Below are positions 53,732 through 55,906 of a stretch of 64,000 nt of DNA, one piece after another; positions within the stretch are counted from its first letter, which is position 1; the number at the start of each line of letters is the position of its first letter. The translations under genes were made by a program, and so were the position numbers. Origin of the DNA: Chloroflexota bacterium (GTDB lineage: Bacteria; Chloroflexota; Limnocylindria; QHBO01); contig JAILWI010000001.1 in the NCBI GenBank assembly GCA_025699005.1, positions 894,486 through 958,485 of the forward strand, written 5' to 3'. The notes below the pieces were generated by a model, which was not told the origin of the DNA, ran no database searches, and was given only the letters and a program-made list of their open reading frames with translations.

Positions 53732-54373
53732 ATGGGCAGCCTCATCCTCGTCCGACACGCCACCACCGAAGCCTCCGCCGCGGGTCGAAACCTCGGCCAG
53801 GCGAGCGATCCGCCGCTGGCCGATGCCGGCCACGAGCTCGCCGCGTCGCTCGGGCGCACGCTGGCCATGGAGCTCGCCGAGCTGCCGCACGACGAGATCC
53901 GCCTGCTCACCAGCCCCGCGCTCCGCTGCCGCCAGACGATGGCCTCCATCGTGGCCGGGCTCGAGCGCGATCCCGAGACGGTCGAGATCGAGCCGGGCCT
54001 GCTCGAGATCGAGTACGGCGCGTGGGAGGGCCTCACGCCCGACGAGGCGACCGCGCGCGACCCCGAGCTGCGTGCGGAGTGGGAGGACGACCCCTACACG
54101 ACGGCATGTCCGGGCGGCGAGAGCGGCGCCGACGTGGCGAAACGGGCGGCCGCGGTGCTCGATCCCGTCGAATCGTGGCTGGCCGAGGATCGCGCACGCT
54201 GCGCGGTGGCGGTGGCCCACAACCACGTCAACCGGGTCCGCATGTGCCGGTTGCTCGGCTGGCCGATGCGCGACTACCGGCGCCGGCTGGTCGCGGATCC
54301 GGGGGGCTACAGCCTCGTGACGTTCGGGCCGGGCGGACTCGTGGTTCGACGCTACAACGCGCCCGGAGCCTGA
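53732..54373 (+). CDS. Histidine phosphatase family protein
   Basis: LVRHA, SPALRCRQT, EIEYGAWEG, GGES, VAH. Confidence 0.9.
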   Translation: MGSLILVRHATTEASAAGRNLGQASDPPLADAGHELAASLGRTLAMELAELPHDEIRLLTSPALRCRQTMASIVAGLERDPETVEIEPGLLEIEYGAWEGLTPDEATARDPELRAEWEDDPYTTACPGGESGADVAKRAAAVLDPVESWLAEDRARCAVAVAHNHVNRVRMCRLLGWPMRDYRRRLVADPGGYSLVTFGPGGLVVRRYNAPGA

Positions 54374-54382
54374 CCGCGGGAC

Positions 54383-54449
54383 TGGCATGCCTCATGCGTA
54401 GGAGCGCTCGGACGCTCGCTTCTGCGGATCGGCGTCCGCTGCCTATACT
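54383..54449 (+). promoter_or_regulatory. Tandem rpoN promoters: sigma-54 -24/-12 and sigma-70 -10
   Basis: TGGCATGCCTCATGC at 54383-54397 (GG-N10-GC); TATACT at 54444-54449. Confidence 0.65.
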
Positions 54450-54487
54450 CTGAGGGCTCCCGAGCCACCGTCCCTGCGCGAGGTTCC

Positions 54488-55906
54488 ATGTCGATCGAGA
54501 TCAGCCAGCAGCTCCAGCCGACCCTGCAGGCCAAGGTCACTCCCAAGCAGATCGCGGCCAACTACATCCTCCAGATGAGCTCCGTCGAGCTCCAGGAAGC
54601 GATCGCGCAGGAGCTGGACGAGAACCCGGCCCTCGAGATGGAAGAGCTCCCCAGCTGCCCGATCTGCGGTCGGCCGGTGTCCGGCAACTACTGCACCGAC
54701 TGCATGCCGCGCAAGGGCGAGGGCGACAAGGACGACGGCCCGGGCCTCACGGCCGACGACCTGCCGGGCGATGGTCAGACCCGCCTCCGTGACGAGGCCG
54801 ACGAGTTCGACCCGATCGCGCGCGCCGAGGCCGATTTCACCCTCGAGGATCACCTCACCTGGAACCTCCACGCGCTCCTGCCCACGCGGCTTCATCCGGT
54901 CGCCGATCACGTGATCGGCGCGCTCGATTCGAACGGGTTCCTCACCGAGACCGATGCCGAGATTGCCGCCGAGACGGGCACGTCGATCGACGACGTCGAC
55001 CAGGTGCTGGCCGCCATGAAGGGCCTCGACCCGATCGGCATCGGCTCGCGCTCGATCACCGAGTCCCTGCTGGCACAGGTCGAATACCTCCGCGAGCAGT
55101 CCCACATCGAGGTACCGCCGTACGCCGAGGAGGTCATCGGCGAGCACCTGGCCGAGCTGGGCGAGCGACGCTTCCGCGAGGTCGCCGCCGCCGTGGGAGC
55201 CACGCAGCGCCAGGTGACCACCGTCTGGGAGTTCGTGAAGGCGAACCTCAATCCCTACCCGACGGCCGCCTTCACGGCAGCGGTGAGCGGCGACTCGTCG
55301 CGCTCGATCGTTCGGCCCGACGTCCTGATCCGCGATACCGATGGGGAGCTGACGGTCGAGGTCGTGGAGTCGCGACGCTTCAGCCTCCATGTCGCACCGA
55401 TCTACTCGAGCCTCTCGTCGAAGCTGCGCAGCGCCGAGACGACGGAGGACGAGAAGCAGCACGTCCGCCAGTACGTCGGACGCGCGAAGTTCTTCATCGA
55501 CAACATCAACCGTCGCCGCGCGACGATCCAGCGCATCGCGGAGTGCCTGGTCGAGCGCCAGCGCGACTACCTCCTCCACGGCGTGCAGCACCTCGTGCCG
55601 CTGACGCGCGCCGAGGTCGGGGAGATCATCGGCATGCACGAGTCGACGGTCAGCCGGGCGACCGCCGAGAAGTACGTCATGCTCCCGCGCGGCGAGGTCG
55701 TGCCGTTCAGCCACTTCTTCACGGCCTCACTCGGGATCAAGGACCAGATCAAGCGCATGATCGAGGCGGAGGACCCGCGACACCCGTACTCGGACCAGGA
55801 AATCGCCGATGCCCTGGCGGAGGAGGGAATCGCGCTGGCACGCCGGACCGTCGCGAAGTACCGGGACGAGCTCCAGATCCTTCCCGCCCGCCTGCGGCAT
55901 CGCTGA
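54488..55906 (+). CDS. rpoN: RNA polymerase sigma-54 factor with Cys4 insert
   Basis: ELDENPALE, LDSNGFL, LDPIGIG, PDV, GMHESTVSRAT, SDQEIA, RpoN box ARRTVAKYRD. Confidence 0.96.
   Translation: MSIEISQQLQPTLQAKVTPKQIAANYILQMSSVELQEAIAQELDENPALEMEELPSCPICGRPVSGNYCTDCMPRKGEGDKDDGPGLTADDLPGDGQTRLRDEADEFDPIARAEADFTLEDHLTWNLHALLPTRLHPVADHVIGALDSNGFLTETDAEIAAETGTSIDDVDQVLAAMKGLDPIGIGSRSITESLLAQVEYLREQSHIEVPPYAEEVIGEHLAELGERRFREVAAAVGATQRQVTTVWEFVKANLNPYPTAAFTAAVSGDSSRSIVRPDVLIRDTDGELTVEVVESRRFSLHVAPIYSSLSSKLRSAETTEDEKQHVRQYVGRAKFFIDNINRRRATIQRIAECLVERQRDYLLHGVQHLVPLTRAEVGEIIGMHESTVSRATAEKYVMLPRGEVVPFSHFFTASLGIKDQIKRMIEAEDPRHPYSDQEIADALAEEGIALARRTVAKYRDELQILPARLRHR

Follow-up and report, generated by a model that had tools for sequence, protein, structure and literature searches.

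How does a sigma-54 factor work that carries four cysteines at the start of its Region II, and does it still depend on an enhancer-binding activator? The question is raised by the rpoN gene of a Chloroflexota bacterium of the class Limnocylindria, which lies in the stretch of 64,000 nucleotides (nt) analyzed here (the window; C1:894486-958485 of genome G000, which comprises 2.57 Mb in 30 contigs with 69.9% GC and is 94.5% complete). A first-pass annotation, made from the DNA letters, had proposed a metal- or redox-responsive, autoregulated sigma-54 subtype that may use a non-canonical activation route. Our analysis favors a simpler answer. It is likely, though by no means certain, that the gene encodes a single, canonical, enhancer-dependent sigma-54, which bears at the start of Region II a four-cysteine (Cys4) knuckle found in almost all sigma-54 genes sampled from the Chloroflexota.

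Domain plan of the only sigma-54 in the genome

A profile search of the genome with PF04552 returns a single match, rpoN at 54488-55906, which is thus its only sigma-54 gene. The encoded protein of 472 amino acids (aa) scores 311.6 bits against TIGR02395 (cut-off 277.35); all features described for the locus lie on the plus strand. Region I, the activator-interacting domain (AID), covers residues 6-51 (54503-54640), ends in ENPALE, and scores 43.9 bits (E 2e-11) with PF00309 (Sigma54_AID), for which the cut-off is 23.8. Its two helices (residues 19-29 and 32-45) are modeled by AlphaFold2 at a predicted local distance difference test (pLDDT) of 91-98. As the first-pass annotation had remarked, the Region I sequence, VTPKQIAANYILQM, differs from the proteobacterial consensus, yet it stays above the PF00309 cut-off.

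Region II opens with the paired cysteine knuckles CPICGRPVSGNYCTDC (residues 57-72, 54656-54703), a zinc-ribbon-like unit at the position of Region II.1 (RII.1). Its remainder (residues 73-115, 54704-54832) is acidic, with 13 D+E versus 6 K+R among 43 residues, is predicted to be disordered (pLDDT 46-65), and ends in DEADEFDP, the DP motif of which is kept in the alignment consensus. The core-binding domain (residues 113-306, 54824-55405; PF04963, Sigma54_CBD, E 2.1e-36) and the DNA-binding domain (residues 325-472, 55460-55903; PF04552, Sigma54_DBD, E 1.2e-42) follow. The latter contains the helix-turn-helix (HTH) and the RpoN box ARRTVAKYR, whose residues R452, R453, T454, V455, K457, Y458, and R459 are invariant or almost invariant in the alignment.

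The Cys4 knuckle stands in place of RII.1

The four cysteines C57, C60, C69, and C72 are embedded in QELDENPALEMEELPSCPICGRPVSGNYCTDC (in a longer reading, ENPALEMEELPSCPICGRPVSGNYCTDC) and form a 16-residue unit of the pattern CPxCG-x8-CxxC; the only other cysteine of the protein is C353. The unit had been described as an insert directly after ENPALE. It is present, but the wording is approximate, the first cysteine being six residues past this motif, and "insert" does not hold. In phmmer alignments, the Cys4 unit matches residues ~54-75 of the solved Klebsiella pneumoniae and E. coli sigma-54 chains, and as the total lengths are practically equal (472 aa versus 475-477 aa in these enterobacterial chains), the knuckle replaces RII.1 without net insertion.

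Apart from the cysteines, conservation within an alignment selected for Cys4 is confined to P58 (63%), G61 (73%), and a hydrophobic residue at position 64 (at least 55%), the rest being variable. Structural zinc knuckles usually show just this combination of a CPxCG pattern and a variable surface. The four cysteines probably bind a metal ion, most likely zinc. The AlphaFold2 model, computed with 107 sequences (mean pLDDT 90.3; predicted template modeling score, pTM, 0.80), places residues 51-70 at pLDDT 85-88 with short beta bridges and residues 71-110 at 46-65. In this model, the knuckle is an ordered island that heads an otherwise disordered acidic Region II.

Distribution of the knuckle

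Cys4 is a trait of nearly all sampled Chloroflexota sigma-54 factors and no quirk of this genome. Among relatives whose N-terminus could be read, all 27 carry it in the form CPxCG-x6/8-CxxC, 21 from the same genus and six from another family at 52-57% identity (L028, with two in-frame TGA codons, and the split L029 were not read; L019, from G006, belongs to a genome flagged as unpublished). For the phylum, an even draw of 201 Chloroflexota species genomes contained 73 with sigma-54, and from 72 of these, representing 20 family codes, 87 copies were read. Of these, 80 copies have a strict and five a loose Cys4, and two lack the unit, so that Cys4 is found in 85/87 (82/84 without three copies from the unpublished genomes G167 and G078). 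Both copies without it belong to family f15 and have hardly any Region II. A lack of conservation of the cysteines in orthologs had been named as grounds for refutation, but conserved they are; by that conservation, the motif lies far beyond chance. Three larger genomes (G082, G161, and G194) encode three sigma-54 paralogs each (L161/L177/L198, L159/L171/L196, and L172/L173/L199), all with Cys4.

A wider view comes from an exhaustive HMMER search of 1.84 billion cluster representatives (50% identity), which gave 13,696 sigma-54 relatives. Among the best 150 of these 13,696, there are 111 with strict Cys4, meaning CxxC-x4-20-CxxC just past the NPALE end of Region I, and eight with a looser form (119/150), 13 fragments without an N-terminus, and 18 without the unit; a span of 16 residues is the commonest (83 of the 119). 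In a tree of 135 full-length members, built with the Region II columns masked, Cys-less forms are scattered inside the Cys4 clade; the knuckle has thus been lost more than once. For two distant Cys4 proteins, a protein atlas gives Chloroflexota as the most frequent phylum among the nearest clusters, which we take as no more than a lead.

Outside the Chloroflexota, the picture is different. In a set drawn from all phyla, eight of 80 sigma-54 loci among the matches listed have Cys4: six named Chloroflexia or Anaerolineae, one labeled Udaeobacter, and one 'uncultured bacterium', the taxon names resting on record titles and source names. Among the same listed matches, the unit is found in none of the ~67 sigma-54 proteins read from Pseudomonadota, Nitrospirota, Verrucomicrobiota, Gemmatimonadota, Acidobacteriota, Myxococcota, Bacillota, and Phycisphaerae. 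These proteins of other phyla carry the classical Region I, TPQLQQAIKLLQLS, whereas Cys4 proteins share xPxLIxxxxxLxLS, so that the knuckle goes hand in hand with a divergent Region I. The Udaeobacter-labeled locus L038 (DATLPP010000109.1, 4.3 kb) encodes a sigma-54 that is 54% identical to the query, with a Limnocylindria-type Region I and Cys4. Other Verrucomicrobiota sampled beside it have the classical form, and L038 is probably a misbinned contig.

A single NtrC-type activator accompanies sigma-54

No activator is encoded in the window, as the first-pass annotation had stated: PF00158 has no match within it. In the whole genome, PF00158 has four matches, two on C30, one on C26, and one at C1:717864. 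One of them is the genome's only true enhancer-binding protein, an NtrC-type protein of 498 aa at G000:C30:29639-31135. It consists of PF00072 (Response_reg), PF00158 (Sigma54_activat; 242.7 bits, E 2.4e-73, profile positions 1-168), PF25601 (AAA_lid_14), and PF02954 (HTH_8). Its loop reads GHEKGSFTGA, in which GSFTGA is one residue off GAFTGA, the usual loop form of sigma-54 activators. GSFTGA occurs in 20/20 activators of relatives. The remaining PF00158 matches are no enhancer-binding proteins: two are of the ClpB/ClpC type, and the third is an AAA_5 protein.

The co-occurrence of sigma-54 and activator was counted in 40 relatives, with activator matches taken at E <= 1e-20. In family f1, sigma-54 is present in 23/24 genomes and the activator in 19/24, the misses falling in genomes that are 56-82% complete. 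The corresponding counts are 7/7 and 6/7 in f2, 1/1 and 1/1 in f5, 0/7 and 1/7 in f3, and 0/1 and 0/1 in f4. A correlation between Cys4 and activator absence had been suggested as a check; instead, the activator co-occurs with sigma-54 across the class. Both genes are missing in genera g14 (0/4) and g16 (0/2) of the window's own family, in genomes 94-99% complete, and in a second sample of family f3 sigma-54 is again found in 0/8. It thus looks as if certain lineages of the class have dropped the sigma-54 system altogether.

Candidate sigma-54 promoters elsewhere in the genome

The element TGGCACGGAGCGTGCA lies ~1.1 kb 3' of the activator gene, past a PCMT gene (L037:6280-6295; G000:C30:32279), and ~45 nt 5' of a gene for a small membrane protein of 164 aa. 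It is kept as TGGCAC(G/A/T)-N4-GTGCA with a variable spacer in 5/5 genomes retaining that gene, this one and four relatives. By its form and conservation, this putative element downstream of the activator and PCMT genes is a canonical -24/-12 promoter.

Across the genome, TGGCAYG-N5-TGC occurs at 18 sites, of which 9-10 are intergenic, compared with an intergenic fraction of 23% (binomial P 0.013 to 0.003; rough gene calls by a heuristic based on GC content at third codon positions, GC3, were used). Most of the intergenic sites lie 13-90 nt 5' of genes for small membrane or hydrophilic proteins. The system therefore has a canonical appearance, with sigma-54 and the NtrC-type activator each present once and a regulon of small size.

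The genome's one perfect match to the 12-position consensus is TGGCACGCCGGTTGCT at L036:3083-3098 (G000:C25:14082), ~60 nt 5' of a gene for a small membrane protein that is followed by groES and groEL. Because of this arrangement, the chaperonin genes groES/groEL may belong to the sigma-54 regulon. The small protein encoded at C25:14104 shares a QVNVN motif with the 164-aa membrane protein on C30. A further site, TGGCACGCGGCGTGCA at L036:6272-6287 (G000:C25:17271), lies 3 kb beyond TGGCACGCCGGTTGCT, before a tiny open reading frame (ORF) and a UvrD/PcrA-like helicase gene. This -24/-12 site and that at G000:C25:49915 end 13-15 nt before an ATG, and if transcription starts 11-13 nt 3' of them, the mRNAs for the small proteins encoded there would have no leader or hardly any.

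Promoter region of rpoN

Upstream of rpoN itself, two elements can be distinguished. The first, CCTATACT (54442-54449), contains TATACT at 54444-54449, a sigma-70/SigA-type -10 box ~40 nt 5' of the start codon. It had been pointed out as a sigma-70 element downstream of a GG-N10-GC site, and it is there in 22/22 genus loci, at the same aligned place as TATAAT, TATACT, TATCAT, or TATACA (the alignment left out L016 and L019, with too little upstream DNA, and L030-L035, which belong to another family). A consensus scan of 54200-54600 for the two sigma-70 hexamers finds no -35/-10 pair. Going by its conservation, CCTATACT is likely the primary promoter of rpoN.

The second element is the GG-N10-GC site itself. 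TGGCATGCCTCATGC is present exactly as the first-pass annotation gave it, at 54383-54397, 10 nt past the stop codon of the upstream His_Phos_1 gene and 46 nt upstream of the -10 box, but it is a weak match. As TGGCATG-CCTC-ATGCG (54383-54398), it scores 9/12 against TGGCACG-N4-TTGCW and is a candidate secondary sigma-54-dependent promoter. Sites scoring at least 9/12 recur on the sense strand within 170 nt before rpoN in nine of 28 loci (L006, L007, L011, L017, L021, L025, L027, L030, and L031; score 10 in four of them), compared with 0/28 on the antisense strand. Random 170-nt windows of this genome reach at least 9 in 3.6% and at least 10 in 0.44% of cases, giving a binomial P of ~4e-7 for the 9/28, which is overstated for related genomes. 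A strict pattern demanding [TA]TGC finds an rpoN upstream site in the window's genome only, and looser scoring leads to the 9/28. The recurrent sense-strand sites together with the conserved -10 box make a basal promoter plus sigma-54 feedback plausible. Taken alone, the window's own site, one of the 18 genome matches to TGGCAYG-N5-TGC, is unremarkable against chance. We put the odds at about even that it functions as a sigma-54 promoter and supplements a constitutive SigA promoter with feedback.

Weighing the alternatives

Could the Cys4 unit be a sensor? Thiol oxidation, or the loss or exchange of a metal (Zn, or Fe as in rubredoxin), would then shift Regions I and II on RNA polymerase, and sigma-54 activity would respond to redox or metal status. 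The two CxxC pairs, which account for four of the five cysteines of the protein, are chemically capable of this, and the candidate regulon of small, stress-like membrane and hydrophilic proteins, with one site before a small gene and groES/groEL, would suit such a role; rubredoxins also appear among the top Foldseek rows described below, without significance. However, CPxCG...C(P)xC(G) with variable surface residues is what structural zinc knuckles usually look like, and no redox partner gene is linked to rpoN, the neighbors being ndk, a signal peptidase gene, a histidine phosphatase gene, and a gene for a Big_5/PD40 protein. Moreover, the knuckle is found in nearly all sampled Chloroflexota families with sigma-54, in genomes of widely different size and with sporadic loss. 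This fits a structural module better; sporadic losses and a variable surface point to a dispensable structural element rather than a dedicated sensor, and we regard the sensor reading as unlikely. Less probable still is an elaboration in which most Chloroflexota would have a regulatory gate within sigma-54, the knuckle being a metal- or redox-dependent plug of the downstream-DNA channel that sets how firmly the holoenzyme is locked. On oxidation or loss of the metal, the requirement for the activator would be modulated or in part circumvented, and rpoN feedback through its own -24/-12 site would make the response switch-like. An activator-independent or alternative activation route, as first proposed, draws on a Region I that differs from TPQLQQAIKLLQLS, on the lack of a PF00158 match in the window, and on G029, described below. 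Against it stand the Region I score above the Pfam AID cut-off, the full-length GSFTGA activator on C30 with the loop conserved in all 20 relatives examined, its co-occurrence with sigma-54, and the conserved -24/-12 promoter beside the activator gene. The proposal is already largely refuted, and only a very slight chance is left to it.

A stronger challenge concerns TGGCATGCCTCATGC, which might be no promoter at all. It could match by accident, or be a short palindrome or hairpin (GCATG-CCT-CATGC) left over in a variable spacer, with rpoN transcribed from the SigA-type promoter only. The window contains one match to TGGCAYG-N5-TGC versus 0.25 expected, and 22/100 shuffles also contain at least one; 1212 genome sites score at least 9/12. 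Most genus members lack the site, yet all keep the -10 box, and a palindromic GCACG-N3-CGTGC occupies the same place in L007 and L011. A hairpin as such receives little backing from folding (-11.9 kcal/mol, z -0.15; 77/200 shuffles fold as well), and a scan for terminators found no terminator-like site that would explain the palindrome. In favor of a promoter, TGGCACG with its GG-N10-GC spacing persists in L025, where the palindrome is missing, the enrichment is restricted to the sense strand, and the -12 element of the conserved promoter near the activator is of the GTGCA type as well. On balance, we give the chance or palindrome explanation a serious probability, a little short of one half.

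The preferred reading, a canonical enhancer-dependent sigma-54 with a knuckle widespread in the phylum and possibly a feedback promoter, also faces observations that weigh against it. At the protein level, Pfam zinc-ribbon profiles match a 35-aa knuckle sequence only below threshold (best DZR_2, E 0.0045, 17.2 bits versus a cut-off of 27), and a Foldseek search of the PDB with a single-sequence model of these 35 aa (pLDDT 75.5) finds no match at E <= 0.001, the best rows being a rubredoxin, RING domains, and a ribosome entry at E 4.4 to 9.4. For this reason, we name the unit zinc-ribbon-like. A location of the knuckle in the downstream-DNA channel would follow from a sequence alignment with the Klebsiella protein across a stretch of low conservation, and its repeated loss, together with the f15 copies that have almost no Region II, indicates that the knuckle is not indispensable. 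As to the activator, G029 (95% complete) has sigma-54 and no activator match at E <= 1e-20, and G026 has an activator fragment without sigma-54. In the rpoN promoter, the window's site is the sole TGGCATG among nine intergenic matches, the other eight being TGGCACG, and it lies in an indel-rich stretch without counterpart in most genus members. The binomial P values overstate the evidence, since the relatives are kin; despite this kinship, the upstream spacers differ, and L025 has kept TGGCACG and the GG/GC spacing.

Proposed role of the knuckle

In the available text of PMC5095919 and PMC10786286, Region II is the part of sigma-54 that is conserved least and can for the most part be dispensed with; it is called acidic and without clear predicted structural features. 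Structures, as far as these texts report them, put it in the downstream-DNA channel, the template path, and the RNA exit path. According to PMC5095919, RII.1 sits in the downstream-DNA channel of the Klebsiella holoenzyme as a secondary inhibitory element like sigma-70 region 1.1.

In the canonical sigma-54 that we favor, the four cysteines would hold one structural metal ion, most likely zinc, and thereby form a small, rigid beta-hairpin. This metal-stabilized hairpin may replace the floppy acidic RII.1 and, placed between the helix of Region I and the acidic finger of Region II, serve as plug or tether. Metal binding, the channel location, the structural role, and the activity of the upstream site are what we infer. 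The basic mechanism would remain as known: The holoenzyme would form a closed complex at TGGCAC-N5-xTGC promoters, and opening would require ATP hydrolysis by the single NtrC-type activator with its receiver (REC), AAA+, and HTH domains and its GSFTGA loop. rpoN would be transcribed from the conserved SigA-type -10 promoter, to which the -24/-12-like element may add activator-dependent positive feedback in this genome and in roughly one out of three relatives examined. Because activator, promoters, and domain plan are all canonical, the sigma-54 paradigm is unchanged. An ordered Cys4 unit in place of RII.1 in nearly all Chloroflexota sigma-54 factors sampled would constitute a natural experiment on RII.1 function, and Cys4 provides a simple sequence marker for the Chloroflexota-type sigma-54.

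Comparison with known systems

The sigma-54 factors of K. pneumoniae and E. coli (e.g. 5BYH, 5NWT, 7QV9, and 9Q91) share with the protein described here the order of Region I, Region II, core-binding domain, extra-long helix and HTH (ELH-HTH), and RpoN box, with an end-to-end match at E ~1e-50, similar length, and the same ARRTVAKYR. Shared, too, are the acidic second half of Region II, the NtrC-type activator partner, and TGGCAC-N5-TGC promoters. In contrast, RII.1 is a Cys4 knuckle here and an acidic cysteine-free stretch there, Region I reads xPxLIxxxxxLxLS here and TPQLQQAIxLLQLS there, and the activator loop is GSFTGA instead of the usual GAFTGA.

With zinc-ribbon and rubredoxin modules (DZR_2, zinc_ribbon), the unit has in common the two CxxC knuckles, the first of them CPxCG, a short hairpin, and predicted ordered beta structure. 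It is unlike them in that its four cysteines lie within only 16 residues, its Pfam score is below the cut-off, no structural match is significant, and the metal site is putative. A topological resemblance exists to TFIIB, in which a zinc ribbon precedes a cleft-entering finger (B-reader/linker), as the knuckle precedes the Region II finger. This is a resemblance only and no homology, and the binding site of the TFIIB ribbon is close to the RNA exit, a place that in sigma-54 is taken by the core-binding domain. In the available text of PMC5095919, RII.1 and sigma-70 region 1.1 both occupy the downstream-DNA channel, and RII.3 is compared to the sigma finger and the TFIIB linker.

A literature search, largely confined to openly accessible articles, turned up no paper in which Region II of sigma-54 is said to contain a motif of cysteines or a zinc site. 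The available text of Francke et al. notes sigma-54 in 'some Chloroflexi' (PMC3162934). As far as the sources at hand go, the nearest link in print between a zinc ribbon and sigma-54 is FlgZ (HP0958) of Helicobacter pylori, a CXXC...CXXC zinc-ribbon protein that, according to the accessible part of PMC3372290, protects RpoN from turnover. FlgZ is a separate protein acting in trans, the knuckle lies within sigma-54, and the two are likened by function only. The design of a basal plus a feedback promoter is already known. Rhodobacter capsulatus has it in its nifU2-rpoN superoperon, where the primary promoter beside rpoN is weak and constitutive and an upstream secondary promoter that depends on sigma-54 and activator provides positive feedback (accessible text of PMC6925177, citing Cullen et al. 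1994). That secondary promoter requires NifA and precedes an upstream gene; here, the candidate site lies a short distance 5' of the -10 box and is found in some relatives only.

Start site and gene neighborhood

The rpoN start codon is conserved in position among relatives and is preceded at a distance of 4 nt by the ribosome-binding site GAGG (54480-54483), which the genus alignment keeps as CGAGG(T/A)T. In the gene neighborhood, ndk and, on the opposite strand, a signal peptidase I gene are found; the His_Phos_1 phosphatase gene (53732-54373) lies directly upstream of rpoN and the gene for the Big_5/PD40 protein downstream. Synteny of the His_Phos_1 gene with rpoN is kept in nearly all aligned genus members, L021 being different, and the length of the spacer that separates these genes differs by tens of bases across the genus. 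In two loci, rpoN is interrupted, by the two in-frame TGA codons of L028 (G014:C11) and by a split into two ORFs in L029 (G008:C20). Both may be either pseudogenes or assembly errors, the genomes being 56-70% complete.

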